Origin: an uncultured delta proteobacterium
GTDB taxonomy: Bacteria; Desulfobacterota; Binatia; Binatales; Binataceae
DNA: 64,000 bases
Reading direction: 5' to 3'
NCBI GenBank assembly: GCA_963808235.1
Contig: CAWEEQ010000004.1
Coordinates: 3,136,001-3,200,000 of the forward strand
The notes beneath the pieces were generated by a model. That model was not told where the DNA came from and did not search any database. It worked only from the letters and a program-made list of their open reading frames with translations. Positions 5,352-45,361 of the stretch are shown here, piece by piece. A program made the translations under genes and the position numbers. How positions within the stretch are numbered: position 1 is the first letter of the stretch; the number at the start of each line of letters is the position of its first letter.

Positions 5352-5369
5352 CCGCGCGCAATTTTCACC

Positions 5370-5598: not shown

Positions 5599-5744
5599 TT
5601 TCCGTTCGACACGCGCTGAGCTTCAGCTCTTGCCGACTCCAACTCTCTCGAATTCCGCGCGCTCTGTCCTTTGCCAGGCAATCGTGGAGGAATGAGTGCC
5701 TTGCGTCCGCTAACGAAGGCCGCGACACCGACGAGAAAAAATTC

Positions 5745-6029: not shown

Positions 6030-6077
6030 CCGCGAATTCAAAAGGACACTACCTAACAGCTGAGATGCATCCCTCGT

Positions 6078-6306
6078 AATAGCCTCGCCCTGACAGGGAG
6101 AGGCCGACGCTCGTCGTCGAGCGGCGGGTGAGGGTCCAAATCCCAAATTCCGCTCACTCCCATTTTTTCGTGTCATCCCGAGCGAAGCCGAGGGACCCCG
6201 AATCTTTCTCAGCGCCGATCTCACCACACCATCCCTCGCACCCGGCGACACGCCAACGTATCCCCTCCGGTCCGTCTTTTTTTGTGATACGAAATCGGTG
6301 AGGCTC
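6078..6306 (+). repeat. 229-bp composite REP-like direct repeat, copy 2
   Basis: Aligned by eye with 5370-5598. Differences are concentrated in a roughly 25-nt linker. Confidence 0.92.
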
Positions 6307-6323
6307 ATCGCAAAGTTTTCAAA

Positions 6324-7706: not shown

Positions 7707-7711
7707 TTCAT

Positions 7712-8380
7712 CCTACCTTCCCCTTGTCCGAGGGGAGGTCGGAGCGCGCCAAAGGAGCGCTCCGGGAGAGGTGCAACGCCCGACAGCGCACACACGCCGA
7801 CTCGTCTAACCACTGTTCACTCGCTACAGGTGCCGCCAAGTCTGTCATCCTGACGAAGCGAACAACCCGAGCGGATGAAAGGACCTCAGCGTCCGCGCCC
7901 TCCTGTCATCCTGACCGAAGCTCGCAACGCGAGCGGAGCGGATCTGGCTTCTGGCCTCCGGACAGCGTCGCGCCAGCGCCGCCGGTTCCGGTTTCGAGTC
8001 GCCGCTTCCAACTCCTTGTGGCACTGCCTCCCAAGTGGCACGGGCGTCCCTGCCCGTGATTGACCCGCCCTCCTGTCATCCTGACCGAAGCGAGCGGCAA
8101 CGCTCGCGGAGAGGAACTGGCTTCTGGCCTCCGGACAGCGTCGCGCCAGCGCCGCCGGTTCCGGTTCCGAGTCGCCACATCCACCATTAGCAACCCTAAT
8201 CCCCCGGATCGCCACGAGAGTTCAGGGATGAACTGTTCAGCCTGATTCAAACCCAAATTCCGTGAGACCCTAACCCTGATGAACTACTCCCCGTGTCATT
8301 CTGAAGCGCAGCCGAAGAATCCCGGATCTTTCTCGATGCCCACAACACCACGCCATGCGCGCACCGCCGACGCGCCCCGG
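7712..8380. repeat. Mosaic cluster of REP-like palindromes
   Basis: Hairpin A-like element about 7715-7772. tgtcatcctgac(c)gaagc at about 7843, 7904 and 8074. About 110-bp direct repeat at 7896-8003 and 8066-8176. GTGG-type palindrome 8035-8058. Degenerate hairpin B plus tail 8292-8376. Confidence 0.85.
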
Positions 8381-24874: not shown

Positions 24875-24991
24875 AGAATCCGGAAAAGAAAAGTTGAAAC
24901 GCGAGTTTCGTCGCCTCCTCTACGCTGAGATTCAAAGGGCGCCTCTGAGTTATATGATGGCACGTTTGAGGCGGCATTTTCTGAGGCGCGG

Positions 24992-25387
24992 GTGGAGAAA
25001 CCCCATTTGGCTCGTTATTATCCTCGGGCGCTAGAGCGGAAGGCCAAAGGCGAGGATCAGCCCGAATTAGTCCCAAACGAAGAGGAAGAAGAAATTAACT
25101 TGGAGCACATTTTACCGGAGCAGCCGGAGCAGAACTGGCCAGATATCGCGCCGGAAATGGCCGAGGCCTACTACAATCGGATAGGCAACATGGCGCTGCT
25201 CCAAGCGAAGAAAAATTCCACGATTGGGAACGCGCCGTTCGACGACAAACGGAAAGTTTTCGGGCAATCGGCATACATACTGACGGCAGAAGTGGGTGCT
25301 AAAACCAAATGGACTACGACTGAGGTTCAACAGCGGCAAAAGCATCTTGCGCAGCGTGCGGTTGAGACTTGGCCGTTGGCGGTATGA
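24992..25387 (+). pseudogene. C-terminal remnant of a GmrSD-type (DUF1524 HNH) restriction nuclease
   Basis: NLEHILPE...IGNMALL...KNSTIGNAPFDDK. No DUF262 N-terminal part. More AT-rich than its flanks. Confidence 0.78.
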
Positions 25388-25713
25388 AGCCGCGTCAGGT
25401 CACCGCGCTCGCGCTTGTGGGCTTCTTCGCGCTGATCGTTATGACCGGCTGCTTAGCCCCTTGGAACTTTAGTTATTATCCAGACCCAAGCGCTCACACG
25501 GCTGGCTATAAATGCCCACCGCCCGAGGAGATGAGTCATTTTGTTGTGACCAAGACTGCGCCGTGTACCTGGATACCGGGAGAGATGTTCGCTGCGTCCT
25601 GTTGGGACGAGGAAATTGCAGCTATGAATGAAGGACGCGGCTGCGTTCCCGAGCCCAGTCCGACACCGACAGCGACACCCACTTCTACTGCGACTCCAAC
25701 CGTGAGTTCGTAA
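25384..25713 (+). CDS. Putative lipoprotein, Cys-containing, with PT-rich tail
   Basis: ATGA overlap with the upstream stop. MKPRQVTALALVGFFALIVMTGC lipobox and PSPTPTATPTSTATPT tail. Confidence 0.65.
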   Translation: MKPRQVTALALVGFFALIVMTGCLAPWNFSYYPDPSAHTAGYKCPPPEEMSHFVVTKTAPCTWIPGEMFAASCWDEEIAAMNEGRGCVPEPSPTPTATPTSTATPTVSS

Positions 25714-25831
25714 ATTAAGCCACTTCGCTTTTCAAATGACGCTACTCGATCCTAAAGGCGCTCGAATGACGCCAGTAGCTGGGGTAGCCGTTCTATTGTC
25801 ATGCGGTTGGGCGAGTAGTATTGCTTCTCTT

Positions 25832-25943
25832 GCCGATTAGGCGGCTACCTGTCCGCGGAAAGGGCTGAGCCCACCATAAAGTTTTCGGATTTTTACGTAA
25901 CTCTTCTGCCCGTTTGCGGACGCCGGGCAAGAAGGAAGGGTTA
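25832..25943 (+). promoter_or_regulatory. Candidate structured 5' leader that sequesters the RBS
   Basis: Stem TAACTCTTCT-GCCCG/CGGGC-AAGAA-GGAAGGGTTA (25898-25943) covers the SD. Its loop TTTGCGGAC is complementary to upstream GTCCGCGGA (25851-25859). Confidence 0.5.
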
Positions 25944-27085
25944 TGTCTGCAACTCAATCCTCGCCAAAATCACTGCCTGCAAATCCCAGCGCGGAGTACC
26001 TGCGTAAGGAGGCCAAGCGTCTCGCGCGCGATGAGGCGATCCAGCTTACCGCCGCGCAGCGCCGGCTGGCACATGAGTACGGTTACAGAAGCTGGGCCGA
26101 ATTGATGACGGCGGTGCAGAAGATGGCGTCGGCGGGCGGCGCCGGCATCGGCGCCAATCCTTCTAAGCCGGTTGGCTCGACTCCAGTTAGCGACAGCGGT
26201 GCGAATGTCTTCCCGTTGCTGCCGTTGCGCGGACTGGTTGCGTTCCCTCACGTTTCCTATCCGATCTTTGTCGGGAGACCGACGTCGATAAAGGCGGTCC
26301 AATGCGCGAAGGATCGAGAAGTTCCGATCTTCCTGGCTGCGCAAAGAGATCCGAAAAGCACGGACCCATCGAGCTCCGAGATGTACCAGGTTGGCAGTCT
26401 CGGAAGGGTGATCGAAGCGATGCAGTTCCCCGACGGGAGCGTCAAAACCATCATCGAAGCCGACCGACGGGCGCGGGTGAATCGCTTCATCTTCGATACG
26501 GATTTCTCCAAGGCCGAAGTCGAGGAGATCGAAGAGACCGCGATTTCCGAGGCGAGGATCGAGGACCTGGTTCCCCTGGTGATTTCGGCGTTCATGAGGA
26601 GACGCGCCAAACCATTGCGCCAAAAAAAATTCCATCGCATTCGATCGAGGTCCCGAGGGAAAATCGAAGTGCTGGTCGGTGGCGGGAGCGTCGAGGCACC
26701 GCTCGAGCCGCTCAACGAGCGCCTGTCCAAGCCGGTCGAAGGGCTGCGCATTTCGGTTCGCGCCCTCAAGGGCCTGCGGACCGCGGATATCAAGTGCGTC
26801 CGCGATCTGGTCCAGCGCACCGAGGAGGACATGCTCAAGATCAAAAACTTCGGCCGCAAGGTGCTCGACGAGATCAAGGAGATACTGGCCAGCATGGGGC
26901 TGACACTGGGCATGCCCGAGGCGTGGGTTGTGGCGGGAACAGATGCCGGCAGCGCCTCGGCGCTCGCCGATCGGATCGCGAGCGAGCTGCCGATGGAACT
27001 CGCATGGAAACAGGAGCTGCTGGAGCTTCTCAACCCGGCCCACCGGCTGGAGAAACTCTTAGCCTACTTGAATGTGCTGCGCTGA
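25943..27085 (+). CDS. Lon N-terminal substrate-binding domain protein with inserted RNA polymerase alpha-CTD, no AAA+ or protease domain
   Basis: aa 11-55 LPANPSAEYLRKEAKRL...AQRRLAHEYGYRSWAEL helical module. aa 89-217 and 338-377 Lon-N (PLLPLRG..FP, GR..SI, LAAQRDP, PDG, LADRIAS..KQELLE..RLEKL). aa 257-324 alpha-CTD (SVR, DLVQRTE, KNFGRK, GLTLGM). Confidence 0.9.
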   Translation: MSATQSSPKSLPANPSAEYLRKEAKRLARDEAIQLTAAQRRLAHEYGYRSWAELMTAVQKMASAGGAGIGANPSKPVGSTPVSDSGANVFPLLPLRGLVAFPHVSYPIFVGRPTSIKAVQCAKDREVPIFLAAQRDPKSTDPSSSEMYQVGSLGRVIEAMQFPDGSVKTIIEADRRARVNRFIFDTDFSKAEVEEIEETAISEARIEDLVPLVISAFMRRRAKPLRQKKFHRIRSRSRGKIEVLVGGGSVEAPLEPLNERLSKPVEGLRISVRALKGLRTADIKCVRDLVQRTEEDMLKIKNFGRKVLDEIKEILASMGLTLGMPEAWVVAGTDAGSASALADRIASELPMELAWKQELLELLNPAHRLEKLLAYLNVLR

Positions 27086-27115
27086 TTCGGGAGGACATCG
27101 AAAAAGGGAAAAAGA

Positions 27116-27139
27116 CACAGGCAGGGACGCCCGTGCCAC
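27116..27139 (-). repeat. GTGG-type REP-like palindrome
   Basis: Reverse complement GTGGCACGGGCGTCCCTGCCTGTG differs by one base from 8035-8058. Confidence 0.8.
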
Positions 27140-27202
27140 AGGAATTTGGAAAGACAGTTCCTTTGCCACTAGAATGTCCCGGTGCTCGGAGGCGAGAGAA
27201 CT

Positions 27203-28036
27203 ATGCCGGAAGACAAATTTGTTCAGGTCAACGAGATGCGGCTTCACTACCGAGACTTCGGAAGCGAAGGCAAACCTGCCCTGCTCTTCATGCACGGTCT
27301 GACGGGGAATGCGCACTGCTTCGATCACGTCGCGCCGGAGTTCGTCGGCACGCATCACGTGCTCGCGCTGGATTTTCGCGGCCATGGAGACAGCGAGTGG
27401 CATCGCGACGGAGAATACGCTTTTCAGCGTCAGGTGAGTGACGCGGTTGGGTTTCTCGAAGCGCTGAACGTCTCGAAGGTCAGTTTGATCGGAAGCTCTC
27501 TTGGCGGCGCGCTCGCGATGGTCCTCGGCGCGATAAAGCCGGACTTCGTCGAGCGAGTAGTGCTTAACGACATCGGGCCGGAAATCAATCTTCCCGAACC
27601 TGATGAAGCGGCGGAAGCTCTGGACCTGCTAAACCAGCAGTTCTCGGACGCAGCCGAAGCGCTCGACTACTACAGGCGATGCTACCCTCCAGCGCGAGTG
27701 CTTCCAGATACCGTCGCGATCGAATTCGTACGCAACTCATTGCGAGTCGCCGATGGCGGGTCTCTGCGCTGGAAAGCAGATCCTCGCGTTCAGGCGGTCG
27801 CGCCGACCTCCAGCACTTCAGGTTCCTCGCCGGGGATGTGGCCGCTGTTCGACGCGGTCAAAGCTCCAATCCTGGTGATTCGCGGTGCCGAGAGCGAGAC
27901 GTTGCTCGCGAGTACAGTCGCGAAGATGGTTGCGCGTCGGTCCGGTATCCGCGCGGTTGAGGTTCCCGGAGTGGGTCATACTCCATGGTTGTCTGAGCCA
28001 ACGGCGCTGGCCGCGCTGCGAGAGTTCTTGCGCTAG
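27203..28036 (+). CDS. Alpha/beta hydrolase
   Basis: HG, DFRGHGDS, GSSLGG nucleophile elbow, VGHTP. Confidence 0.93.
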   Translation: MPEDKFVQVNEMRLHYRDFGSEGKPALLFMHGLTGNAHCFDHVAPEFVGTHHVLALDFRGHGDSEWHRDGEYAFQRQVSDAVGFLEALNVSKVSLIGSSLGGALAMVLGAIKPDFVERVVLNDIGPEINLPEPDEAAEALDLLNQQFSDAAEALDYYRRCYPPARVLPDTVAIEFVRNSLRVADGGSLRWKADPRVQAVAPTSSTSGSSPGMWPLFDAVKAPILVIRGAESETLLASTVAKMVARRSGIRAVEVPGVGHTPWLSEPTALAALREFLR

Positions 28037-28096
28037 AGTTCTTGCGCTGAGGAAGTCCCTTCCGATCTTTTCCTGCGTGCTGTAAGTAAACTCTCT

Positions 28097-28945
28097 ATGC
28101 CGAAGATATGGCCGGTGCATTACGCTCTCGGGATGGCGGGAGTAGCTGTCCTCCGAAACTGGATGTCTGGCGACGAAACCGCTCGGGCATCCGCGGAGGA
28201 ACTCCGGACGCTGGCCAACAGATTCAGCGAAGATCCCTCGCTCAGCTTTCAGCTCGACATACCCGACATGGACGTAGAGAGCGGCTACCGTCTTTGGGCT
28301 GACACATACGACGATTTGCATAATCCGCTGATCGCCATCGAAGAGCCGATCATCCGGGCGCTGATCGATGCGATCCCGCCCGGTCGCGCTCTGGATGCCG
28401 CATGCGGAACGGGGCGCTATGCTCGCCTTCTGAGTGAGCGTGGCCATCAGGTCGCCGCAGTCGATTTGTCCGCCGAGATGATCGAAAGAGCGCGCGCGAG
28501 CTCACCGGACGTCGAGTTCAAGCAGGGAAGCCTCGAGGCGCTACCGTTTGATGACGAGCGGTTTGATCTCGTGATGTGCGGACTTGCGTTGACTCATCTG
28601 CCCGAAATATCACGCGCGATTTCCGAAATCCGGCGCGTGCTGAAGGTCGGCGGCATCGCAGTGATCGCGGACCATCATCCGATGGCCGGTTTCCTGGGCG
28701 GCAGCGCCATCTTTCAAGACAAGGAGCGCTACTATCGGAACGTTAGGAGTTTCGTTCATGCGCATTCTGAATACGTTTCGGCATTCGTCGCCGCGGGCCT
28801 TGAAATACGGGAATGCCACGAGCCGCTAACGACAGAGGAACTGGCATCCAAGGGCCCATTGTTCGCGGTGTCTCCCAAAGCTTTCCTGGAAGGAACGGTC
28901 GGAATGCCGCTCGCGCTGATCTGGCGGGTGGTCCGCAATCGGTGA
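28097..28945 (+). CDS. Class I SAM-dependent methyltransferase
   Basis: ALDAACGTG, VDLSAEM, LPFDDERFDLV, RVLKVGG. Confidence 0.92.
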   Translation: MPKIWPVHYALGMAGVAVLRNWMSGDETARASAEELRTLANRFSEDPSLSFQLDIPDMDVESGYRLWADTYDDLHNPLIAIEEPIIRALIDAIPPGRALDAACGTGRYARLLSERGHQVAAVDLSAEMIERARASSPDVEFKQGSLEALPFDDERFDLVMCGLALTHLPEISRAISEIRRVLKVGGIAVIADHHPMAGFLGGSAIFQDKERYYRNVRSFVHAHSEYVSAFVAAGLEIRECHEPLTTEELASKGPLFAVSPKAFLEGTVGMPLALIWRVVRNR

Positions 28946-29469
28946 GGAAGAGCCGAGCCGCGGCGCCCGAGATTCTTGGCGTCGATCACATCTATTTGAG
29001 CGTCGCGGAATTTGCGCGGTCGCGAATCTTTTACGACCGCCTGATGAAATCGCTCGGCTTCAAGAAAGGGACTTTCCCCGTCGGCGGTGAACCTCATTGC
29101 CACTATTACAATCGCAACTTCCAGATAACGATTCGGCCGGCACGCAGCCGAAGATCAAAACACGATTCCTTTTCACCGGGGCTACATCATCTATGTCTTC
29201 GGGTGGCGAATCGTGCGGCGGTAGATGACATCGCCGGCCGGTTGCGCGCGATGAGAATCGCGATCGAGGGACCTCGGTTGTGGCCGGAATACGCAAACGA
29301 CTATTACGCGGTGTTCTTTTCCGATCCCAATGGAATTCGGTTAGAAGTAATGAATCACATCGAGCGGCGGAAGACGGTGCGCAGGTTATGGAACCAGCTG
29401 GAAGGCTTCAACAATCCACTTGATCGGCTGGCGCGAAAGGCGCGACGATCCAGGAAGAAAGGAAACTAA
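28942..29469 (+). CDS. VOC/glyoxalase family protein
   Basis: GTG 28942 overlaps the upstream stop. VDHIYLSV, PGLHHLCLR, YYAVFFSDPNGIRLE. Confidence 0.88.
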   Translation: MRKSRAAAPEILGVDHIYLSVAEFARSRIFYDRLMKSLGFKKGTFPVGGEPHCHYYNRNFQITIRPARSRRSKHDSFSPGLHHLCLRVANRAAVDDIAGRLRAMRIAIEGPRLWPEYANDYYAVFFSDPNGIRLEVMNHIERRKTVRRLWNQLEGFNNPLDRLARKARRSRKKGN

Positions 29470-29488
29470 CCGAGGACTCTGAACTGCG

Positions 29489-29987: not shown

Positions 29988-30476
29988 ATCGAGCCCAATC
30001 TTCACATCGTTCTGGTTCGCCCCGAAATTCCGCAGAACACCGGATCGATCGCGCGGCTTGCCGCGGCGATCAAGGCGCGGCTGCATCTGATCGGGCCGCT
30101 CGGCTTCTCGCTCGAAGATCGCTATCTGAAGCGCGCCGGTCTGGACTACTGGCCGCTGGTAGATTTGCGCACTTACAAGGAGTGGGACGAGTTCGCGGCG
30201 GCGCATCCGAATCCGCACGCCGCCAAATTCTTTTCGACGCACGCCGACAAGTCCTATCTCGAAGCGGTTTACTCGCGTGGAGATTTTCTTTTCTTCGGCT
30301 GCGAGACCGAGGGCCTGGGCCGCGAGTTCGTCGCGGAAAGAATCGACCGCGCATACCGGATTCCAATCTTCGAACCCGGCGTCCGCAGCCTGAATCTCTC
30401 CAACGCAGTTTCGATCGTAGTCTACGAAGCACTCCGCCAGACCGGCCTGCTAATCGTTAACCGCGGCCCAGATTGA
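29988..30476 (+). CDS. trmL: tRNA (cytidine(34)-2'-O)-methyltransferase TrmL (start codon uncertain)
   Basis: LHIVLVRPEIPQNTG, LHLIGPLGF, LKRAGLDYW, FGCETEGL, RSLNLSNAV. No in-frame ATG, GTG or TTG precedes the conserved N-terminus. Confidence 0.9.
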   Translation: MEPNLHIVLVRPEIPQNTGSIARLAAAIKARLHLIGPLGFSLEDRYLKRAGLDYWPLVDLRTYKEWDEFAAAHPNPHAAKFFSTHADKSYLEAVYSRGDFLFFGCETEGLGREFVAERIDRAYRIPIFEPGVRSLNLSNAVSIVVYEALRQTGLLIVNRGPD

Positions 30477-30480
30477 AGGA

Positions 30481-30500
30481 ATATGGTAAATATGCCATAT
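30481..30500. promoter_or_regulatory. Inverted repeat, probable TA autoregulatory operator
   Basis: ATATGG-N8-CCATAT immediately upstream of the toxin ATG. Confidence 0.6.
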
Positions 30501-30506
30501 TAGGCA

Positions 30507-30860
30507 ATGGCCCCGTTCCCAAGGCCGGTCATTTGGGTCGGCAGCAGCAAGGATGACATATCGGCCCTGCCCGGACCCGTGAAAGCCTCTTTCGGCCATC
30601 GTTTGCGGCAGGTGCAAGACGGCGAAACGCCGCTCGACATGAAACCGCTTACGCAGTTTGGGACTGGCGTGTTCGAGCTACGCGAGCGCTTCGACAAAAA
30701 TGCCTATCGGTTGGTTTACGCGGTGAATCTCAAAAGGGCGATCTATGTGTTGCACGCTTTCATGAAAAGATCGAAGTCTGGAATCGGGTTGCCGAAACGG
30801 GATGCGGAATTAATCGAAACGCGCCTGAAGCGCGCACATGCAATAGACGCGGAGGATTGA
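30507..30860 (+). CDS. RelE/HigB-like (Gp49-type) toxin
   Basis: WVGSSKDD, GVFELR, AYRLVY, IYVLHAFMKRS. Toxin-first gene order. Confidence 0.88.
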   Translation: MAPFPRPVIWVGSSKDDISALPGPVKASFGHRLRQVQDGETPLDMKPLTQFGTGVFELRERFDKNAYRLVYAVNLKRAIYVLHAFMKRSKSGIGLPKRDAELIETRLKRAHAIDAED

Positions 30861-30864
30861 AAAA

Positions 30865-31194
30865 GTGGCCGAGATTCCTGTTCACAAGAGCAGCGGTAAC
30901 GTGTTCGTTGACATTGGCTTTTCGCCTGCCGAAGCGGCCGAGCTCACCGCGAAAAGCAAACTCATCAGCGCCATTGGCGAGACTATCAAGCGGCGCCGAC
31001 TCACGCAGTCGGAGGCCGCGCGGCGTTGCGGAACGGACCAACCTACACTTTCCAAGGTCCTTCGTGGGCGTATGGAGAGCGTGACGATCGACCGGCTCAC
31101 GGCGTGGCTCATGGCACTCGGACGCACGGTCGAAATTCGCGTGCGCCCATACGACGCAAAAGCGAAAAAGGGGCACCTTGTCGCAACCGGTTGA
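30865..31194 (+). CDS. XRE/HigA-like HTH antitoxin
   Basis: SSGNVFVDIG, LTQSEAA...DQPTLSKVLRG, DRL...LGRTVEI. Confidence 0.88.
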   Translation: MAEIPVHKSSGNVFVDIGFSPAEAAELTAKSKLISAIGETIKRRRLTQSEAARRCGTDQPTLSKVLRGRMESVTIDRLTAWLMALGRTVEIRVRPYDAKAKKGHLVATG

Positions 31195-31249
31195 ACCAAT
31201 GCGGCGACGATCCGGCAACAGCCACAGGGCGCGGATGAAGGATTATCCG

Positions 31250-31936
31250 TCACCTCCAGAACGACACGACGGTGCCCAACACGAGGAACGCGACCACCAG
31301 CGCACCGGCCGCCAGAAGGAATCCGATCAGCACGGTCAAAAATGCGCGCCATGCGGAGAATCGATGCACTTCGCCAAGACACTTGAACGATACGATCCAC
31401 CACCACAGCGTTAGCGGCGCGGAAATAATTATCGACGGCAGCATCGAACGCCAGTAGGCCAGCGCGGTATGCATCGTCACGAGCGCCGGAGGTTGGTGGG
31501 GTGGCGGGAGCAGAAATCCAATTGCGAGATTGACGAGGGCTATCGGGACAGTCACCACAGAAGCCCAGGCGATGGCGGCGCGAACTTCCACCGCCTTCGC
31601 AGTGCCGCCGAGCAGCGACCCGGTCCATCGAAGCAACGCGCCGTTGATATACAGGAATGGGACCGCCAGCAGCGGCCATGCGGCGAGCGTCCAGAGTTTC
31701 ATCAACTGTGCGGAATGGGGCGCCATCGCCGGAATTGGCTTGCCCGCGATTGTGAAAGCGGTGGGGTTGTAATTGTTGCCGTGAATAGCGTTCGCTATTG
31801 CGACGATCACCGCCGTGATGAGCACGATTGCTATGACCCGATCTCTCGGGTCGCGATCGACGATCGTGCGGATAGTGGCGCGCGGGCGGATGCAAATGCT
31901 TACGTATGGCGAATCAGTCCAGTTGGCCGGCTCCAT
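31250..31936 (-). CDS. Yip1 family membrane protein
   Basis: I.IRPRATIR, G.LLGG.A, AIAWA, EVHRFSAWRA. Confidence 0.8.
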   Translation of the reverse strand: MEPANWTDSPYVSICIRPRATIRTIVDRDPRDRVIAIVLITAVIVAIANAIHGNNYNPTAFTIAGKPIPAMAPHSAQLMKLWTLAAWPLLAVPFLYINGALLRWTGSLLGGTAKAVEVRAAIAWASVVTVPIALVNLAIGFLLPPPHQPPALVTMHTALAYWRSMLPSIIISAPLTLWWWIVSFKCLGEVHRFSAWRAFLTVLIGFLLAAGALVVAFLVLGTVVSFWR

Positions 31937-31951
31937 CGAATGCTCCCCCTC

Positions 31952-33742
31952 TCATTTTTTTGCAGGCGCTTCGCGATACGGCAGCGCCTTGCGATAAAGA
32001 TCGAGTCGCTCGCTTTCTTCCTTTTGCACATCGGCCGGTCCGGACTGCGACTTGAGCAGATCGATCGACCGTTCCTCCCATGTCACTGCCTGCGCGAAAT
32101 CGCCCGTTTCACCCAGAGAGGACGCAAGGGTGTCGATCGCATAGCCGTCCTGCCATGAAGAAAGATCACAGGCCTTCTTGGCGAGCGTGAGCGCGCGCTT
32201 GCCGTTGCGAAACTTCGAATCGGGACAGGTGCTGAGGAACCAGGCCGCGGCGTTGTACGTTTCCCAATCATTGGAGGCAACCGCAAGCGCGTGATTGTAG
32301 TCGTCGAGGGCGAGCCGATATTCGCCGACATTCTCGCGAAGGTGGGCGCGGGCCAGAAGGTCATCTTTTGAGGCGGCTTTTATGTGGGCGAGATCCGAAA
32401 TCGCCAGGTCGGGCCGCTTTTTCTGGATAAAGGCCCCGGCCCGTGCCTCCAAGACGCGCATGTCGGACGGATCGAGCTTGGCGGCCGTGTTAAAATCTTC
32501 AATCGCGTGATCGTAGTCCGCCTTCTCCTGGTAGACGAAGCCCCGGCGATAGAACAGGTCGGCGTCCTTGCGCTTCGAATATTTCATCGCCTGATCGAGA
32601 TCTGAAATGGCGTTGTCGTATTGACGGCGGTGATCGTCGATATACGCACGATTGCTGTAGAGTTCCGCGTCTTTCGGCGCCAGCGCGATTGCCTGGTCGG
32701 CATCGGCCTGCGCCTTGTCGTAATGACCCGCATAGTAGTAGGCCATCGCGCGGGAGATGAGAGCGTCGGGATCGGGCTCCTTGGGATCAAGGCTGAGCAC
32801 CTTGTCGAGATCGCCGATCGCCGCCACGTAATCGCGGTTCATCGTTTCGAAGCTTGCACGAGCTTTCAACAGCGCAGGATCGTTCGGCTTCGACTCGAGG
32901 GCACGAGTGTACTCGGCAATCGCAGCGCCATTGTCGCCGAGCGCGTAGTCGCGCTGTGCGAATGTTTCGTGGATGCCGCTGAAGCCAAACATCGAAGCCG
33001 CGCCAACCATCGCGATGGGCATCAGGAAGGGCATCGTATCGACCAGGAAATGACCGATGATGCAGGCCATGATGTCCTTGCGCCATAGATACATGAGGAC
33101 GAACAGCAACTGCATCGGCGCGATCTCGATCGCGTAGCGCCATCCCCAAAACGGAATGTGCTCGGCCAAATCCAGCGCCAGCGCAATCGCCGCGGCGAGC
33201 ACCAGCCGCCCAGTGACGATTCGAAGGCGATCGATCGCGAAGCCACGAGCCGCAACCTCCTCCGAGAAACCGCCCGCGGCGGCGACGAGCACCCCGAGCC
33301 CGGCCGGTATGCGCATCAACGAGCTGAGCTGGTGGGTGGCGACATGCGACATGCTGTTCGGAAAGAAGAGCAGGAGAAGTAGTCTGCCGACGCCCTCTGT
33401 GATCAAGACGGCGACGAACAGCGCCAAGCCCAGACCCAGATCGGCAAGCGTCGGTCTGCGGAGGCCGACTGAGGAGAGCGGTTTTCGCTCCAGGAAAACG
33501 ACGATGCCGAAGAGCACCGCGGTCGCAATCAACTGGTACGTGACAGTAGTCAGCGTCCAGCTTCCGTATTGCGATCGCCCGGCCGACTTCAGCAGCGAAT
33601 CGAGCAGATTCGAGAGCGGTTTGAGCAGGACCGAGAATCCCACCGCAAGCCCAAGGAAGGTCGTAAAATAAATGCTGGCTGGCCGGGTTGGATTGTCCGG
33701 CGGAATCGTCGAATCCGCCGTCTGTTGAGACGCGGTCTCCAT
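31952..33742 (-). CDS. CPBP intramembrane protease fused to TPR repeats
   Basis: SEEVAARG, AEH and GHFLVD in the TM half, followed by about 7 TPR-like repeats. Confidence 0.85.
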   Translation of the reverse strand: METASQQTADSTIPPDNPTRPASIYFTTFLGLAVGFSVLLKPLSNLLDSLLKSAGRSQYGSWTLTTVTYQLIATAVLFGIVVFLERKPLSSVGLRRPTLADLGLGLALFVAVLITEGVGRLLLLLFFPNSMSHVATHQLSSLMRIPAGLGVLVAAAGGFSEEVAARGFAIDRLRIVTGRLVLAAAIALALDLAEHIPFWGWRYAIEIAPMQLLFVLMYLWRKDIMACIIGHFLVDTMPFLMPIAMVGAASMFGFSGIHETFAQRDYALGDNGAAIAEYTRALESKPNDPALLKARASFETMNRDYVAAIGDLDKVLSLDPKEPDPDALISRAMAYYYAGHYDKAQADADQAIALAPKDAELYSNRAYIDDHRRQYDNAISDLDQAMKYSKRKDADLFYRRGFVYQEKADYDHAIEDFNTAAKLDPSDMRVLEARAGAFIQKKRPDLAISDLAHIKAASKDDLLARAHLRENVGEYRLALDDYNHALAVASNDWETYNAAAWFLSTCPDSKFRNGKRALTLAKKACDLSSWQDGYAIDTLASSLGETGDFAQAVTWEERSIDLLKSQSGPADVQKEESERLDLYRKALPYREAPAKK

Positions 33743-33772
33743 CGCGTTCCCCCCTCCGCGTCTCTTAGGGAA

Positions 33773-34048
33773 CTAGCTTTTCTTGACCGCGCAACTGCCG
33801 CATCCCGACGAGCAGCCGCCCTTGTCGCCCTCCTCTGGAGGTGGGCCGAAGTAGTAGCCCGACTGCTCGAGATCGCCGGGTCCGACCCATTCGAGCGCAT
33901 CGCCGACCGTCTGGTCGCAATGCACGCAAACGCGACGCTCAATCCCGTTGTCGTCGAGCATCACGTAGGTCAGCACTGATTTGTCGCAGTGGGTGCAATG
34001 CGCCATCGGAAATGACGCATCTCTGAGCGCGAGCGGAGAAGAAGGCAT
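33773..34048 (-). CDS. Small Cys-rich zinc-ribbon-like protein
   Basis: CTHC...CVHC plus C-terminal GGCSSGCGSC. Confidence 0.65.
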   Translation of the reverse strand: MPSSPLALRDASFPMAHCTHCDKSVLTYVMLDDNGIERRVCVHCDQTVGDALEWVGPGDLEQSGYYFGPPPEEGDKGGCSSGCGSCAVKKS

Positions 34049-39447: not shown

Positions 39448-39549
39448 GGCAAATTCCAGCCGCCCAGTTTAGCAGAGCGGCCGGACTGTGCACCTATGTC
39501 GGATTTGAATCCCGCAGGAATCCAAGCCAGGAAAGCCCGAGCGGAGTGG

Positions 39550-42123
39550 TTAGCCGCCCCGGCAGCCGTCGCCGGCGTACCAGACCTTGCCCTTCACGGC
39601 CCAACTGCTGCCGGGGTAGCGGCGATGGAGCAGACCGAACGCCGACTTCGCCAACGTTGTGCCATCGCTGTTCGAGCATCCGAGGTGCACGGCCCGGAGG
39701 CATTGATAGAGCGCCTCGGGAGCGCGGTCGTCGTTCGGAGACTGACGCTTGGCCTGTTCGATCGCCTCTGAGCAAAGAAAGTTCGGAGCGTTTATCGCCG
39801 ATAGCTTCTGCCATTCGTCATCGGCTGATTTCCTTTCCGCCGCCGACAGAAAGCTCGGATACGTTTGGATCTGCAGGTTCTGACTGACTCCCGAGGGCCA
39901 CCAGTTGTCGCGAAGGGAGTCGATCTCGTCAAGCGATGTAATTCTGCCGGGACCCCGGTCAACGTAAAACCGCAAGCCCGGATTTTGAAGCATCATGTAG
40001 GCGGCCGCGAAGCGCTGCGCATCCGGGTTCTTCGCGTCGAGCCACGAATCGATTGACGGCTTGAGTTTCGGAACAGCTTCCATCACCGCGGGCGCGAGCT
40101 CTCGCGCTGCCGCTTCATTGCCGAGCAGAATCGCCCTGATGAAGGTGGCGAGCGCGACCTGTCCGCGCAGCCGCGATGGCAGCGTCTGGCTATCCGCAGC
40201 CTGCATCAGCACGCTCAGCGGGAGCCATCGGGTCAACGCGCCTGCGCCATCGTCGTCGAACAGCGGTCCCGCCGCGAGTTCCTTCAGAGATTGCCCGCTC
40301 GGGTCGTCGAGATTCGAGGGAAGCTCTTCACCATCGCCATCATCGGTGAATCCGAGCGGCGTGCGCGGCGCGTACTTGAGCAGCTCGGCGAGATTGCGGG
40401 CCACGCTCATACGGAGGCGCGTAAGTTCGTTCACCGTCGAGCGCGGCAGTTGATCGCGCGTGGCGAGGATCGCGTCGAGCTTCTCCCGCGCCTCATCGGT
40501 CTTACCGAGTCCGATCTGGAGCCGCGCGATGTGGTAGGTGGTCGTCGCATATGCCGGCGAGCCGGGCTTTACTTTTTCTGCCGACTCGATCAGCGCCGGC
40601 GCGTTCGGGTCTGAGGCGGGGATTTCCGAAATAGCTGCTACCAGCCAAGGTAACGACGAGGTCTTTTTCCACTTCTGGATCGAGTGCGCGATCGCGGCGG
40701 TGTCGGAATAAGGAGCGGGAGGGTTGCCAGTGTCAGCGACGTGAAGAGTCGAGATCCAATCAGTGAGATCGTCGCTGGGAGGATTCTCATTTTTCGGGCC
40801 GTGCGCGAGCATCCAGATGTAGTCGCTGACATCCTGCTTGAGCACCTCGGCGGAGGTGGGCAGCAAGACTGCGCGCGCCAGCTCCTGCTCGCGCTGCATC
40901 GGATGCAACTGCGCATCGACAAAGCCCAGCAATCGTTGTGCGACATGCTTGACGCTGGCCTCATCGGAGGTGGCGACGATCTTGTTCAATTGCGCTTCCG
41001 CCTCGGCCAGCATCGCAACGTCATTTTTCTCGGCAGACAGCGTTGCCTTACGTATCGTCGCCCTCGCAATCAGATATGGCGCGAGCTGCCGCCACGGCGA
41101 TGAAGGATCGGCGGCTATCGCCGCGAACATCTTCGCCGCGGTATCGAAGTTGCCGCTGTAGAAATTTGCGCATGCGATCTGATACGCGCGCTGCGCCTGC
41201 TCGAACGGCGTACCGCCGGTGAGTGGCTGCGGAATGTCAGGAGTGGCGAGGGGTGTTGGATTCGCCCCAGAAAACGGCGCATTCCCGCACGCGATCAAAG
41301 CCTCGTTCTGCTCATCGACCCATTGCTTCACTTTGGGGTTCGACGCGCCCAAATCACGAATCATGGCGTCGAGCTGGGCTGTCACCGTCTGAAACTTCCT
41401 TGCCCTGCAGTTATCCCCCTCTCCGAACGATCCCGGCGCTACGACGCCCGGGACCTCTTTGCACGTCTCCGTCCATTCCTCGACCGCTTTGGACCATTCC
41501 TGGGAGTCCTCGGCAAGCGTCGGCAGGGCACCGGAACAGTTGTTGAATACCTGATCCTGCGCGCCCACCCATTGCTTCACCTGCGGACTCGACAGGCCGA
41601 ACTTTCCGATCATCGTATCGAGCGTGGCCGCTGCCGTATGGAAAGAGCTGTCATTGCAGTTGGCGTAGTCAAACGATCCATATTCCGCCGGGGCTTGGCG
41701 ATTGACGTCGATTTCTTTGATACCTTCAACGCCAGGAACCTTGTTGTGTGCCGCAATCCATTCGGAAGTAACTTTGCCGGCGTTTTGCTCTTCCTCCGTC
41801 AATTGGGACGATCCCGCCGGAGGCTTTCCCAAACCCAGCCAATCGTTCCAAAGGGAGACTATCGCCTTCTGCTCGGGCGCATCGAAGCCGGGTCCGGCGA
41901 GATACCGATACGCGACATACAGATACGAGCGGTCCCAGGTCGGCTTGATTATTCCAAGCCGCCCGGCGGCGAACTGATCGAATGGCAGGTCGGGATGGAT
42001 GTGCGATTCGAACAACGCAATCACTGAATGAACCCCGCTCGCGCCGGACCAGCCCCACAATGAAGCCGAGCTGAGCAGCGTCGCTGCAGCAAGGACAATC
42101 GCAATCGCTCGCCGAACCCTCAT
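39550..42123 (-). CDS. Large secreted alpha-helical protein with internal duplication
   Basis: Signal peptide from ATG 42123. Repeated W..KVPGV...C...F.T..A.LD.MI..G.S.P.VKQWV..Q...C module. C-terminal APEALY...C...LLHRRYPGSSWA. Confidence 0.8.
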   Translation of the reverse strand: MRVRRAIAIVLAAATLLSSASLWGWSGASGVHSVIALFESHIHPDLPFDQFAAGRLGIIKPTWDRSYLYVAYRYLAGPGFDAPEQKAIVSLWNDWLGLGKPPAGSSQLTEEEQNAGKVTSEWIAAHNKVPGVEGIKEIDVNRQAPAEYGSFDYANCNDSSFHTAAATLDTMIGKFGLSSPQVKQWVGAQDQVFNNCSGALPTLAEDSQEWSKAVEEWTETCKEVPGVVAPGSFGEGDNCRARKFQTVTAQLDAMIRDLGASNPKVKQWVDEQNEALIACGNAPFSGANPTPLATPDIPQPLTGGTPFEQAQRAYQIACANFYSGNFDTAAKMFAAIAADPSSPWRQLAPYLIARATIRKATLSAEKNDVAMLAEAEAQLNKIVATSDEASVKHVAQRLLGFVDAQLHPMQREQELARAVLLPTSAEVLKQDVSDYIWMLAHGPKNENPPSDDLTDWISTLHVADTGNPPAPYSDTAAIAHSIQKWKKTSSLPWLVAAISEIPASDPNAPALIESAEKVKPGSPAYATTTYHIARLQIGLGKTDEAREKLDAILATRDQLPRSTVNELTRLRMSVARNLAELLKYAPRTPLGFTDDGDGEELPSNLDDPSGQSLKELAAGPLFDDDGAGALTRWLPLSVLMQAADSQTLPSRLRGQVALATFIRAILLGNEAAARELAPAVMEAVPKLKPSIDSWLDAKNPDAQRFAAAYMMLQNPGLRFYVDRGPGRITSLDEIDSLRDNWWPSGVSQNLQIQTYPSFLSAAERKSADDEWQKLSAINAPNFLCSEAIEQAKRQSPNDDRAPEALYQCLRAVHLGCSNSDGTTLAKSAFGLLHRRYPGSSWAVKGKVWYAGDGCRGG

Positions 42124-42872
42124 TTCGCGACTTCTCCAATCGCGTTGCGCACCTCTTCGGCCGTCCATGGATGCGGCGAGAACAGGTACACCCGCTTTCC
42201 CGCGGCAAGACCCGAAATTTGCGCGTCGAGTGACAGGCCAACGCTGTTGCGGCTCACGACCGGCACGAACTGGCCGCCGTTGCGAAGATAAGCCGTCACC
42301 TCGCCTGCGTCCGGACCCATCCGGTAGAGCATCGGAACGGCCTCATCGACGGGCAGCCCGGAGATCCAGTCATCATCGAGACACCATGAGGCGAGCGCGG
42401 TCATGGAAAGCGGTATCGAAGACGGCATCCGGTCGCGAACATCAGTCAGAAGGTCACTGTAGAAAGATCGCTCCGACCGGCGCGCGTCGAAATCGATCTG
42501 GATTGCGGCGGGCGAAGTGCGTACCAGTCCGGCGATGATTCGAGCGGCTTCACCGCGCTGCGAAGCCGACAAGGTCGGCGGCAAGCGTCGATCGATCTCG
42601 ATGCGCACCACCGCTATCAGGATCGTACGCGCCGGCACCGTCAAAGGCTGGAACCGCGGGCGAACGATGACGTCATCGCCACTGAGATCGAGCGTGCGCG
42701 CGAGATATGCAACGGCGGTTTTGTCGGGATCAATGAAAGCGAGGTTCTCGCGCCGTTCCCACGCCCATAAGATGACGCGGGGCATACGGCTCATCTGATC
42801 GGCGCGAGCGGAGCGATGTGCCGGCAGCGTGTCCGATGCGCCGGCCAACAGCGCGGCGAGCACGATCGCCAT
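42120..42872 (-). CDS. DUF3142-like protein (start approximate)
   Basis: LWAWER, IQIDFDAR.SER.FY, SMTALASWC, VDEAVPM. Overlaps the next gene by 4 nt. Confidence 0.72.
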   Translation of the reverse strand: MAIVLAALLAGASDTLPAHRSARADQMSRMPRVILWAWERRENLAFIDPDKTAVAYLARTLDLSGDDVIVRPRFQPLTVPARTILIAVVRIEIDRRLPPTLSASQRGEAARIIAGLVRTSPAAIQIDFDARRSERSFYSDLLTDVRDRMPSSIPLSMTALASWCLDDDWISGLPVDEAVPMLYRMGPDAGEVTAYLRNGGQFVPVVSRNSVGLSLDAQISGLAAGKRVYLFSPHPWTAEEVRNAIGEVAK

Positions 42873-42993
42873 CTTGACCGTGCTATAAGGACTCGCCTTG
42901 CTAAGCAAGTTGTGGCCGCTGCGTGTCACCATGTTATCGACTAATCGCGCCAATCTTAGTGCAGTCGCTGAATCCTGCCGAGTGTCCCATCGT

Positions 42994-45333
42994 ATGAGAC
43001 AGTCGGTGGCTAATATACGGATCGTCACAATGTTGGTTGCGGTGTTGATTGGCGCCCCGCTGATATCGGCTTGTCGGGCGACAGGTCCACGTACGCCTGG
43101 AGCTGTAGCTTCGTCGTGGCTGATGCTCGGGCACGATCGCGCGCATACCGGCCGGAGCGATTTCGATACCAGCGCAAATCCCGGTGCGCAGAAGTGGAGG
43201 TTCTCGACCGGCGGCAGCGTGGCCTCGCCGGCCATCGGCAGCGACGGCACGATTTACGCCGGTTCCACTGACTTCAGCCTCTACGCAGTTGCCCCCGACG
43301 GAACGCGGAAGTGGGCGCTCACGACCGACAACGCCGTTGGCGCGCCGGCGATCGCCGCCGACGGGACCATCTACGTCGGCGTCGGTGAGAACCTCTATGC
43401 GGTAAATCCCAACGGCACAAAGAAGTGGGCATTCGCTATCGGTGACGCGTCGAGAGCCGCGCCGACGATTGCCACAGATGGAACCATCTACGTCAGCGCC
43501 GGTGAGAACCTGTATTCGGTAGATCCTAACGGCAAGCTGAAGTGGAAATTCGCCGTCAACTACGCGACGCAGTCCTCGCCAGCGATCGGCGCCGATGGCA
43601 CCGTTTACGTCGGCTCTGGCGACGGCAACCTGTACGCGGTCAATCCGGACGGCGCGCAAAAGTGGGCATTCGCAACTGGCAGTTTTGTCGACTCCTCGCC
43701 GGCGATCGGCACCGACGGCACTATTTACGTAGGCTCAGGTTATCCCAAAGCCAACCTGTATGCGGTGAGCCCTGATGGCACCCCCAAGTGGGCATTTGCA
43801 ACTGCCGCTGGCGCGAGTTTCTCTTCGCCGGCGATTGGCGCCGACGGCAGCGTTTACGTCGGCTCCTACGACGGACGCCTTTACGCGATAAACCGGGACG
43901 GAACGAAGAAGTGGGCGCTGGCAGCTGGCGTGATTGAGAATTCCGCGCCGGCCATCGGCGCGGACGGCACCATCTACGTTGGCTCCGACGACTACAATCT
44001 GTACGCGATAAGCTCTGACGGTTCCAAGAAATGGACGCTCGCCACTGGCAGCGGCCTACATTCCTCGCCGGCGATCGGAGCCGATGGAACCATCTACATC
44101 GGCTCCGGTGACAACAACCTCTATGCTGTCGGCGTCGCCGCTCCGCAGCCCGCGCCCGCCAAAATTCCCGCGACTACAGGCCCGGCATGGCCGATGTTCC
44201 ATCACGATCGCGCGCATACCGGCCGGAGCGATTTCGACACCAGCGCCAACCCAGGAATTCTGAAATGGACGTTGGCGATTGGCGGTGTGCAATCGTTCTA
44301 CTATATGAGCCCTTCGCCGGTGATCGGTGCCGATGGCACCATTTACATAGGTTCCGGAGATCACAGCCTATACGCGGTAAACCGCGACGGCTCGCGGAAG
44401 TGGAAGTTCGCAACCGGGGGTCTTGCGGGTTCGCCGGCGCTTGGCGTCGACGGCACCATCTACGTCGATTCCGATGACCACAACCTCTACGCACTCAACC
44501 CCGACGGCTCGCGGAAGTGGGCGTTCGCAACCGGCACCGGCGCGAACGAGTCATTAGACTCGTGTGCGGACGCGCCAGCCGTCGGTGCGGACGGCGTCAT
44601 TTACGTCGGCACTCGTGGGAAGCTCTACGCGGTCAACCCCAACGGCACCCTGAAATGGACCTTTGCGCCGAGTGAATTCAGTACTTTCTCTACGCCGGCG
44701 ATCGGCGCCGACGGGACCATCTACGTGGGCTCCAGCTACTATTACAACGGCGCCCGCACCACCAGCGGGCGCATGTACGCGCTACACCCAGACGGCACTT
44801 TGAAGTGGGAATTTGCGGCTCCTCACACTCTTGAACCTTCCTCGCCGGCGATCGGCTCGGATGGCACCATTTACATCGGATCGAGTGATTTCAACCTCTA
44901 CGCGGTGAACCCCGACGGCAGCCAGAAATGGAAATTCACGGCCGGCAAGTTCGATAGCGCTAAGGGTGATAGTGGCCTGTACTCCTCGCCGGCTATCGGC
45001 GCCGATGGGACAATTTACGTTGGCTCATGGGACTATAACCTCTACGCGGTAAAGGCGGATGGCACTCTGAAATGGAAGTTTGCCGCTGGCAATCCGGTGT
45101 TCTCCTCGCCGGCGATTAGCGCCGACGGCACCATTTACTTTGGCTCCAGCAATGACCGGCACCTTTACGCGGTAAACCCCGACGGGCGGCTTAAGTGGAA
45201 ATTCACAACCGGCGTCATTCTACCGATCAATTCCTCGCCGGCGATCGGGGCCGATGGCACCATCTACTTCGGCTCCGATGACGGCCATCTCTACGCCGTC
45301 GGCGCTGCCGCCAGATCGCAACCGTCCAAATGA
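42994..45333 (+). CDS. PQQ-like beta-propeller repeat lipoprotein (two tandem propellers)
   Basis: About 14 repeats of SSPAIG.DGTIYVGS.D.NLYAVNPDG..KW.F. ISAC lipobox. Duplicated HDRAHTGRSDFDTSANPG headers. Confidence 0.9.
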   Translation: MRQSVANIRIVTMLVAVLIGAPLISACRATGPRTPGAVASSWLMLGHDRAHTGRSDFDTSANPGAQKWRFSTGGSVASPAIGSDGTIYAGSTDFSLYAVAPDGTRKWALTTDNAVGAPAIAADGTIYVGVGENLYAVNPNGTKKWAFAIGDASRAAPTIATDGTIYVSAGENLYSVDPNGKLKWKFAVNYATQSSPAIGADGTVYVGSGDGNLYAVNPDGAQKWAFATGSFVDSSPAIGTDGTIYVGSGYPKANLYAVSPDGTPKWAFATAAGASFSSPAIGADGSVYVGSYDGRLYAINRDGTKKWALAAGVIENSAPAIGADGTIYVGSDDYNLYAISSDGSKKWTLATGSGLHSSPAIGADGTIYIGSGDNNLYAVGVAAPQPAPAKIPATTGPAWPMFHHDRAHTGRSDFDTSANPGILKWTLAIGGVQSFYYMSPSPVIGADGTIYIGSGDHSLYAVNRDGSRKWKFATGGLAGSPALGVDGTIYVDSDDHNLYALNPDGSRKWAFATGTGANESLDSCADAPAVGADGVIYVGTRGKLYAVNPNGTLKWTFAPSEFSTFSTPAIGADGTIYVGSSYYYNGARTTSGRMYALHPDGTLKWEFAAPHTLEPSSPAIGSDGTIYIGSSDFNLYAVNPDGSQKWKFTAGKFDSAKGDSGLYSSPAIGADGTIYVGSWDYNLYAVKADGTLKWKFAAGNPVFSSPAISADGTIYFGSSNDRHLYAVNPDGRLKWKFTTGVILPINSSPAIGADGTIYFGSDDGHLYAVGAAARSQPSK

Positions 45334-45361
45334 CCGCGACGGTCGGGACCTGCCGATGCGC

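Follow-up and report, generated by a model that had tools for sequence, protein, structure and literature searches.

A protease-less Lon N-domain protein with a nested copy of the RNA polymerase alpha-CTD in a Binataceae genome

In LonA proteases, two hydrophobic patches of the N-terminal domain bind degrons and unfolded proteins; in Escherichia coli LonA these are hpI (L16, V20, V21, P28, L29, and L91) and hpII (L81, L83, P84, and V88) (PMC8087443). In this study, we analyzed a window of 64,000 nucleotides (the whole stretch of DNA examined; positions 3,136,001 to 3,200,000, forward strand, of contig CAWEEQ010000004.1 in assembly GCA_963808235.1) from an uncultured bacterium of the Binataceae. 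One gene of the window encodes a protein that combines a Lon N-domain with a copy of the C-terminal domain of the RNA polymerase alpha subunit (alpha-CTD). The genome is referred to as G000 and the protein as P0001; further P, L, and G numbers designate homologous proteins, loci, and genomes, respectively.

P0001 shares its fold, its sequence and both hydrophobic patches with the LonA N-domains of E. coli (3LJC/2ANE) and Meiothermus taiwanensis (7CR9/7CRA). Different from LonA, however, P0001 lacks the AAA+ and S16 peptidase domains, ends before the long helix and adds an N-terminal helical module (N-module) as well as the alpha-CTD. Stand-alone Lon N-domain proteins, such as BPP1347 (1ZBO), a Xanthomonas protein (7CAY) and those of the COG2802 type, are also protease-less and were matched by Foldseek with E values of 1.3e-7 and 4.6e-7. 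To our knowledge, no function has been assigned to them. They are single-domain proteins and much more distant in sequence, with identities of 13–20%, whereas the family of P0001 arose recently by duplication of the N-domain of a true LonA and possesses the N-module and captured modules. The insert of P0001 is a copy of the RpoA alpha-CTD (69% identity) that keeps the equivalents of R265, N294, G296, K298, and E302; different from RpoA, it lacks the alpha N-terminal domain, is not part of a polymerase and has N268 and S299 changed.

Similar to P0001, cereblon (Foldseek E = 6.6e-8) and the LONRF ubiquitin ligases use a protease-less Lon N-type domain for binding and connect it to another machine, and LONRF2 is reported to select misfolded proteins (PMC10226518). 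They differ from P0001 in their partners DDB1/CUL4 and RING domain and have no alpha-CTD, while a link of P0001 to a degradation machine is a proposal. In yeast, Mrx6/Pet20 on Pim1 tie Lon N-domain recognition to the stability of a transcription protein (Rpo41), and Mrx6 binds the N-domain of the Lon protease Pim1 and sets its substrate choice, including that of an RNA polymerase (PMC12802967). Mrx6/Pet20 are, however, partners rather than copies of the N-domain, unrelated in sequence and mitochondrial. No description of a protein with a Lon N-domain plus alpha-CTD or of stand-alone alpha-CTD paralogues was found in the literature, with subscription journals outside the coverage. An earlier note on this DNA, made by a model from the sequence alone, had known of no described protein with this architecture. 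This stands for the literature; the architecture itself is not unique, as 20 of the 120 best homologues have it, and public metagenome proteins of this kind are labelled "ATP-dependent Lon protease" or "Lon protease-like protein". The Lon N-domain and the alpha-CTD are each already known, and the main interest lies in the way in which one family has captured docking modules several times.

Architecture of P0001

P0001 is a small protease-less chimera in which the N-module is followed by a Lon N-domain with a nested alpha-CTD (Table 1). The open reading frame (ORF), Pfam and phmmer results agree on the three-part arrangement without an AAA+ or peptidase domain that the earlier note had described, and the alpha-CTD boundaries that it gave (26711–26914, corresponding to residues 257–324) are correct. 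LON_substr_bdg (PF02190) covered residues 90–377 in one stretch (profile positions 2–199 of 200, E = 3.5e-36, 125.5 bits vs. a cut-off of 28.7). Nested in it, RNA_pol_A_CTD (PF03118) covered residues 258–316 (profile positions 8–66 of 67, E = 8.2e-21, 73.9 bits vs. a cut-off of 23.8), and weak Pfam matches to other helix-hairpin-helix (HhH)-type families were also found over this stretch. Pfam detected in P0001 neither an AAA+ or Lon_C (S16 peptidase) domain, although Lon_C did come up for the true Lon genes of the genome, nor an alpha N-terminal dimerisation/core-assembly domain. The gene downstream of the P0001 ORF encodes an alpha/beta hydrolase by Pfam and not an AAA+ module. With the NCBIfam endopeptidase La model, P0001 scored 93.4 bits against a cut-off of 891, which places it outside the LonA proteases. 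The NCBIfam rpoA equivalog models gave 46–90 bits against cut-offs of 228–523 and matched with their C-terminal part only; a separate full rpoA is present in the genome. P0001 is not a single-domain protein of the COG2802 type either (approximately 200 amino acids (aa), Lon N-domain alone), as the N-module and the alpha-CTD are also present.

In phmmer searches against PDB, residues 90–217 of P0001 aligned without gaps to residues 11–138 of E. coli Lon and residues 337–376 to residues 161–200 (3ljc, E = 6.7e-27). Thus, two helices of the Lon helical lobe flank the insertion of approximately 99 residues, which comprises a basic tether and the alpha-CTD. The very basic linker that the earlier note had pointed out is present as RRRAKPLRQKKFHRIRSRSRGK at residues 219–240, with 12–13 basic residues in 22. 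Its first residues, RRRAK, belong to a Lon helix that is also present in the homologues without an insert. In an AlphaFold2 (AF2) model built with a 103-sequence family alignment, the predicted local distance difference test (pLDDT) values of the N-module and both Lon parts were >90, and the beta-rich N-lobe plus helical lobe of a LonA N-domain were recovered at residues 89–225 and 340–380. In Foldseek searches with this model, the LonA N-domains ranked first (7cr9, E = 3.8e-17, TMt 0.82; 2ane, TMt 0.92, root-mean-square deviation 1.4 over 108 columns), followed by cereblon, BPP1347, and the Xanthomonas stand-alone Lon N-domain protein. Within the genome, the N-domain of the second Lon matches the Lon lobe at 47% identity. 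Moreover, sequence mapping showed that all 10 hpI/hpII positions are hydrophobic in P0001 (L95, V99, A100, P107, I108, I170, M160, F162, P163, and V167, of which one is a change from V to A), and most of these positions are conserved in the family alignment.

The N-module is conserved across the whole Lon-N family and also heads the ankyrin-repeat proteins P0264–P0276 (360–467 aa), whose identities to it over the module were 56–76%. When folded alone, it had a mean pLDDT of 80.6. No match to a solved fold was found by Foldseek against PDB at E ≤ 0.001, the best Z of a wide VIA-align search was 4.5, which is below the chance level for helical matches, and the ESM Atlas matches were to unnamed clusters only (0.84–0.85). 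With Pfam and NCBIfam, Glyoxalase_8 (E = 0.1) and PRK05973 (E = 8e-6) were the only matches, both weak and both in the N-terminal part of the model. The N-module seems to be an unnamed module, shared between proteins, for targeting or oligomerisation.

Origin and maintenance of the inserted alpha-CTD

Exactly two alpha-CTD matches were found in the genome, one in rpoA and the other in the P0001 gene, and sequence comparison identifies the insert as a diverged copy of the alpha-CTD of the lineage's own rpoA. The two are identical at 52 of 75 aa and at 73% of nucleotides, and the codons differ at 21 of these 52 residues. They also have in common a lineage signature, VEGLPISVRAxxGL plus DMLKIKNFGRK, which was found in rpoA of G000, of 16 genomes of the genus and of four genomes from four other genera of the taxonomic family, and which was absent from rpoA of 20 genomes from 12 other families of the class. 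The GC content at third codon positions was 0.885 for the insert (78 codons) and 0.712 for the other 302 codons of the ORF, in agreement with the earlier note's impression of a GC3-richer insert, and similarly high (0.859) for the alpha-CTD of host rpoA.

A tree of the insert against rpoA and a comparison of non-synonymous (dN) and synonymous (dS) changes, both proposed in the earlier note, place the insert at the rpoA node of the lineage and give no sign of neutral decay. In the tree of 53 alpha-CTDs over 76 columns, whose bootstrap was not fully settled, three classes of alpha-CTDs outside RpoA were each monophyletic: those inserted as in P0001 (type 1, 100/99), those located between N-module and Lon domain in other homologues (type 2, 98/99) and stand-alone ones (100/99). 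All three attached at the unresolved genus rpoA node, and none fell inside the clade of rpoA from other families and E. coli (99/93). No branch joined type 1 with type 2, which are likely, although not proven, to derive from two independent captures. By the method of Nei and Gojobori (NG86), dN between the insert and host rpoA was 0.189, dS 0.824 and the ratio of dN to dS (omega) 0.23, compared with 0.02–0.05 for rpoA pairs within the genus, so that the omega of the insert is 5–10 times faster; these values are rough, with 70–76 codons and dS near saturation. An omega of 0.23 with a dS of 0.82 indicates that the copy is old and constrained, and by these estimates it evolves faster than its parent rpoA and is under purifying selection. 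The conservation among P0001–P0004 was 0.81 for the alpha-CTD and 0.84 for the Lon parts, with 0.81–0.88 for the domains and 0.53 and 0.65 for the two linkers.

The 265 determinant of RpoA, which we take to consist of R265, N268, N294, G296, K298, S299, and E302 with N268 and S299 as DNA contacts, retains five of these seven residues in the insert. Mapping of the insert onto the E. coli K-12 RpoA sequence reproduced the by-eye residue list of the earlier note, and the changed residues are N268K, C269G, S299V, D259G, and E261R. The earlier note had read these changes as a re-tuned surface, which holds only in part. N268K and S299V are specific to the paralogue, whereas the lineage's own rpoA already has C269G and D259G; at position 261, host rpoA has P, and the five type 1 proteins have R or P. 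Both paralogue-specific positions vary within type 1 (K, K, T, T, and K at 268; V, A, A, A, and A at 299). The consistent change of the paralogues is the loss of N268, which affects all three classes, while R265 is strictly retained in all of them. R265 and K298 are named as part of the 265 determinant in a study on the activator Rob (PMC9178005).

Reads showing a chimeric assembly had been named as a way to refute the chimera; instead, related sequences speak for its integrity. Four other clusters from JGI/ENA metagenomes (P0002–P0004 and the partial P0007) have the same architecture at 78–83% identity, and a 426-nt contig from a soil run, which may be the source sample, bridges the 5' junction by spanning Lon domain, linker and alpha-CTD at 26430–26855 with 2 differences. 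Positions 26881–27115 were almost uncovered by read contigs, so that the 3' junction of the insert has no bridging contig, and a depth peak at 26834–26880 derives from rpoA of other organisms. An assembly chimera is unlikely.

Family, captured modules and genomic context

A homologue search gave 810 matches at E ≤ 0.001 among 8000 scored candidates, and the domain architecture was counted in the best 120 of the 810, the query included. Of the 20 in which the search for LON_substr_bdg plus RNA_pol_A_CTD found both domains, five belong to type 1 (P0001–P0004 and partial P0007) and 15 to type 2. The type 2 site was assigned by alignment for nine proteins and by motif order for the rest, among which the Lon-start motif of P0063 was unmatched, with spacing as in the others. 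The family core is approximately 285 aa and consists of the N-module, a Gly/Ser/Pro linker and the Lon N-domain. No longer protein with both domains was found among the best 150 of the 14,637 matches of a length-unrestricted search, and a single-protein scan of genome contigs gave only two distant matches (TM6 and Patescibacteria). In PHROGs, only phrog_15585 was matched, a Lon-like family of 793 positions and unknown function.

Other modules of the expression machinery were also found on this scaffold. Five type 2 proteins have a C-terminal NusG-KOW tail, which is 51–54% identical to host NusG over 51–53 aa in the three that were tested. P0057 carries sigma54 region I in the same loop as the alpha-CTD of P0001 (64% identity to the host over 55 aa), and P0119 carries an IF2_N domain (38% to host IF2 over 71 aa). 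P0117, a single truncated protein on a 779-nt contig, has an N-terminal PadR winged-helix domain, and P0090 (575 aa, 6 member sequences) has a C-terminal protein-L-isoaspartate O-methyltransferase (PCMT), a repair enzyme for damaged proteins. An unnamed helical module with the motif PDLMQLR..VLDQVGD.P.LLEL occupies the type 2 site at L107:3479-4201 and in G120 at L193:1501-2684, where the gene is broken into two frames. The captured docking modules (alpha-CTD, NusG-KOW and sigma54 region I) are without the core-binding part of their parent proteins.

Stand-alone alpha-CTD genes were found in G012, G029, G033, G028, and G169 (Table 1), with ORFs of 74 aa in L135 and L052 and omega values of 0.11–0.30. 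All of these domains are without N268, in each of them Cys takes the place of E. coli R284, and the copy in L136 has an internal duplication of 6 residues. In addition, 2 to 11 tandem alpha-CTD repeats were found in the large metagenome proteins P0121, P0159, P0136, P0142, P0150, P0141, and P0134 and at G043:C1:2787352-2787993; some tandem alpha-CTD proteins are fused to a ResIII helicase, RNA polymerase beta/beta' fragments or sigma70 region 4. The alpha-CTD outside RpoA is not rare in metagenomes.

Among 61 relatives, the full protein was found in G000 only. Each of the two types was found in a single genome of the 165 of the taxonomic family (30 genera), type 1 in G000 and type 2 in G004. 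Relatives without an insert (50–65% identity) were found in four genomes of four other genera and in none of the other 46 genomes of the genus. The P0001 gene is located in a strain-specific island that interrupts the dtd–DUF1285 junction, the two genes being adjacent in G006, G008, and G033 of the same genus. The island also contains a GmrSD/HEC-06 remnant, which matches positions 432–556 of 558 of the PADLOC HEC-06 profile, the alpha/beta hydrolase gene, a methyltransferase gene and a glyoxalase-fold gene. Searches of PADLOC-DB 2.0 (5027 models) with P0001, P0005, P0071, and P0079 returned 0 families at E ≤ 0.001. A scan found neither a promoter-like site upstream of the ORF nor a plus-strand terminator-like site after it, which is uninformative. 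No RNA data set was among the 11 sequencing runs listed for the gene. Two further synteny breaks with G006, G008, and G033, at approximately 30452–33773 and approximately 39460–45365 of the window, are probably more strain-specific insertions.

A subfamily without an insert (256–273 aa) is the first gene of the ileS-lspA operon in 10 genomes of the genus and four metagenome loci. For instance, the gene in L042 (4427–5197) overlaps ileS (5194–8160) by 4 nt, and the same layout was found in L040–L048, L050, L087, L092, and L093. G000 lacks a gene of this subfamily and has ileS-lspA at C4:3245835-3249410. Outside the window, the second lon gene of G000 is split into two overlapping frames (C4:626518-627139; locus L181, 165–2646, minus strand), one of 460 aa with the Lon N-domain only and the other of 627 aa with AAA+, lid and Lon_C. 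The split is caused by a one-base frame change in a CCCGGCG run, and at least 30 relatives have one frame of approximately 825–832 aa; the locus is a genuine pseudogene or split gene, or else the assembly is in error here. The genome also has a 226-aa frame of the stand-alone Lon N-domain type.

Table 1. Coordinates of P0001, its parts and associated features (positions in the window unless a locus is named).
Feature	Position	Strand	Remarks
Whole ORF (P0001)	25943..27085	+	380 aa plus stop, ATG start; two nested domains by Pfam
Shine-Dalgarno-like AGAAGGAAGG	25930..25939	+	Shortly before the start codon at 25943; taken from the sequence itself
N-module, aa 1–64	25943..26134	+	Three helices, 17–31, 35–45 and 51–64; AF2 pLDDT >90 over residues 20–60
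Gly/Ser/Pro-rich linker, aa 65–88	26135..26206	+	pLDDT <50 for 68–85; corresponds to the alpha-CTD site of type 2 relatives in the family alignment
Lon N-domain, beta-rich N-lobe and first long helix, aa 89–225	26207..26617	+	Aligns with E. coli Lon 11–138
Basic, poorly conserved insertion linker, aa 226–254	26618..26704	+	pLDDT <50; mean pairwise identity of P0001–P0004 0.53 (bin aa 218–254)
Inserted alpha-CTD, aa 255–324	26705..26914	+	Pfam E = 8.2e-21; copy of the C-terminal domain of lineage rpoA
Resumed Lon N-domain helical lobe, aa 325–380	26915..27082	+	337–376 align with E. coli Lon 161–200; pLDDT >90 for 340–380
Strain-specific island, ~4.6 kb, approximate bounds	24880..29480	.	tblastx synteny vs. 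G006, G008 and G033
GmrSD/HEC-06-type restriction protein remnant, last ~130 aa of ~558, left island edge	24992..25387	+	GmrSD_C E = 9.5e-25
Stand-alone alpha-CTD loci	L135:3359-3583; L052:571-795; L134 ~3234-3449; L136 ~3264-3497; L190 ~1477-1686	+; -; -; +; -	

Possible functions of P0001

We tentatively favor, as a possible reading short of a firm assignment, that P0001 is a non-catalytic bait or adaptor that would join Lon-type recognition of degrons and unfolded proteins to mimicry of the alpha-CTD. In this model, the scaffold would consist of the lineage-specific N-module and a duplicated LonA N-terminal substrate-recognition domain without ATPase or peptidase, and its Lon lobe, with the kept hydrophobic patches, would recognise degrons and unfolded proteins. 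The alpha-CTD copy, which sits in a helical-lobe loop on a flexible basic tether, would bind the usual partners of the alpha-CTD, such as activators, other docking factors and possibly A/T-rich DNA. One molecule would thereby couple binding of alpha-CTD partners to Lon-type substrate recognition, and the bound factors would either be sequestered from RNA polymerase and Lon or be presented to Lon. Because it is without the alpha N-terminal domain, the copy could not join RNA polymerase and could only bind alpha-CTD partners. The copying of docking modules without their core-binding parts points to mimicry, by which docking factors would be titrated or re-routed. The fusion of the scaffold to PCMT in P0090 fits a putative role of the Lon lobe as a reader of damaged or unfolded proteins.

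There is a precedent for an overlap of alpha-CTD partners and Lon substrates, since Rob, an activator of the AraC/XylS group, contacts the 265 determinant, as SoxS and MarA of that group are also stated to do, and is subject to Lon degradation (PMC9178005). The earlier note had proposed a decoy or adaptor; this is still the most economical reading, which the kept Lon patches and the other captured modules make more plausible, while decoy and adaptor are not distinguishable. We infer from the sequence that the domains would bind their canonical partners, and the same applies to the direction of action, sponge or hand-over. A complex prediction of P0005, which has no insert, with host alpha-CTD (score 0.06, mark 0.32) is not evidence either way. 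In a broader version, the N-module plus Lon-N scaffold would be a general "mimic display" platform, docking modules of the bacteria's own expression machinery (alpha-CTD at two sites, NusG-KOW, sigma54 region I and IF2_N) having repeatedly been copied onto a Lon-type reader as integrated decoys. These would take up, sense or pass on factors that hijack the docking sites, be they host regulators or phage/plasmid effectors. Such decoys would resemble the integrated decoys of plant immune receptors; we regard this version as unlikely.

Several observations weigh against the bait or adaptor reading. The scaffold ends at approximately residue 200 of E. coli Lon, without the long coiled-coil helix found after the N-domain of LonA, so that co-assembly with Lon hexamers is not obvious. 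The AF2 model had pLDDT values of 37–77 over the insert and thus does not give the placement of the alpha-CTD on the scaffold. With N268 and S299 changed, the insert may be unable to bind UP-element DNA or the activators that dock on the 265 surface. The sigma54, IF2_N, and PadR forms are single clusters on contigs of 0.8–1.7 kb. As the gene occurs in 1 of 165 genomes of the family, whatever P0001 does is dispensable. Finally, an all-against-all comparison of the ORFs of 31 loci recovered a conserved operon only for the no-insert subfamily next to ileS-lspA and identified no conserved neighbour that would point to a partner for the subfamily of P0001 or for type 2; the genes of type 1, type 2 and no-insert subfamily b lie in different contexts.

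A different explanation, which we consider doubtful, is that the alpha-CTD and the Arg/Lys-rich linker form a DNA-binding module (HhH, A/T-rich minor groove) that anchors a Lon-type reader on the nucleoid or at UP-element-like sites. Lon itself is DNA-associated, and a tether of this kind would agree with the five kept residues of the 265 determinant, the basic residues of the linker, the weak matches to HhH-type families and the PadR winged-helix domain that P0117 carries instead. The basic linker is, however, the least conserved part of P0001–P0004, and N268 is replaced in all three paralogue classes and S299 by V or A in type 1. Moreover, KOW, sigma54 region I and IF2_N are protein-docking and not DNA-binding modules, and the PadR form is one truncated protein.

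It is quite unlikely that P0001 is an integrated decoy against effectors of mobile elements, in which host docking domains targeted by phages or plasmids (alpha-CTD, NusG-KOW, sigma54 region I and IF2) would be displayed as copies that act as a sponge or sensor, and the Lon lobe would mark or hold the effectors. The patchy distribution of types 1 and 2, the location of the gene in a strain-specific island beside a GmrSD/HEC-06 remnant and the capture of several different host modules by one scaffold would agree with such a decoy, as would the strict retention in all paralogues of R265, presumably the residue modified by T4 ADP-ribosyltransferases. None of the four family proteins searched matched a PADLOC family, though, and P0001 has no effector domain and no intact defence gene adjoining it. 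The subfamily without an insert resides in a housekeeping operon, and a quick look at ORFs, without a family search, revealed no obvious phage or defence genes near the stand-alone alpha-CTD genes.

Alternatively, the insert could act not on outside partners but within the molecule: placed in the helical lobe, it would serve as a lid or spacer that gates the substrate patches or the oligomeric state of the scaffold itself. Flexible linkers could permit back-folding, the loop takes different inserts (alpha-CTD, or sigma54 region I in P0057) and an unrelated helical module is accommodated at the other site (L107 and the G120 gene, which is broken). A lid, however, needs no kept alpha-CTD surface residues, purifying selection on the insert is as strong as on the scaffold, and the repeated choice of expression-machinery docking modules argues for outside partners, which makes a purely intramolecular role very unlikely. 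A functionless product of a chance in-frame rpoA duplication, or a chimeric contig, is scarcely credible and largely refuted: the rarity among genomes and the 3' junction without a bridging contig would fit it, but five clusters from several sources have the exact architecture at 78–83% identity, a contig of the soil run spans the 5' junction, the omega and dS values speak for an old copy under constraint, and a second, probably independent insertion site is represented by 15 clusters.

The Lon N-domain and the alpha-CTD are well understood as parts of machines, and here free-standing copies of both are found in one small protein. If the copies bind their usual partners, as the bait or adaptor reading supposes, the family would represent a natural, modular titration or re-routing of transcription and translation regulators, with a possible coupling of these regulators to protein quality control. 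If the family were instead a decoy against mobile-element effectors, this would amount to a new class of logic in bacterial defence. As a soluble protein of 380 aa with two binding domains predicted to be separable, P0001 would provide a handle on the overlap of alpha-CTD partners and Lon substrates. More broadly, the alpha-CTD paralogues, whether fused, tandem or stand-alone with 74 aa, constitute an unappreciated class in this lineage.

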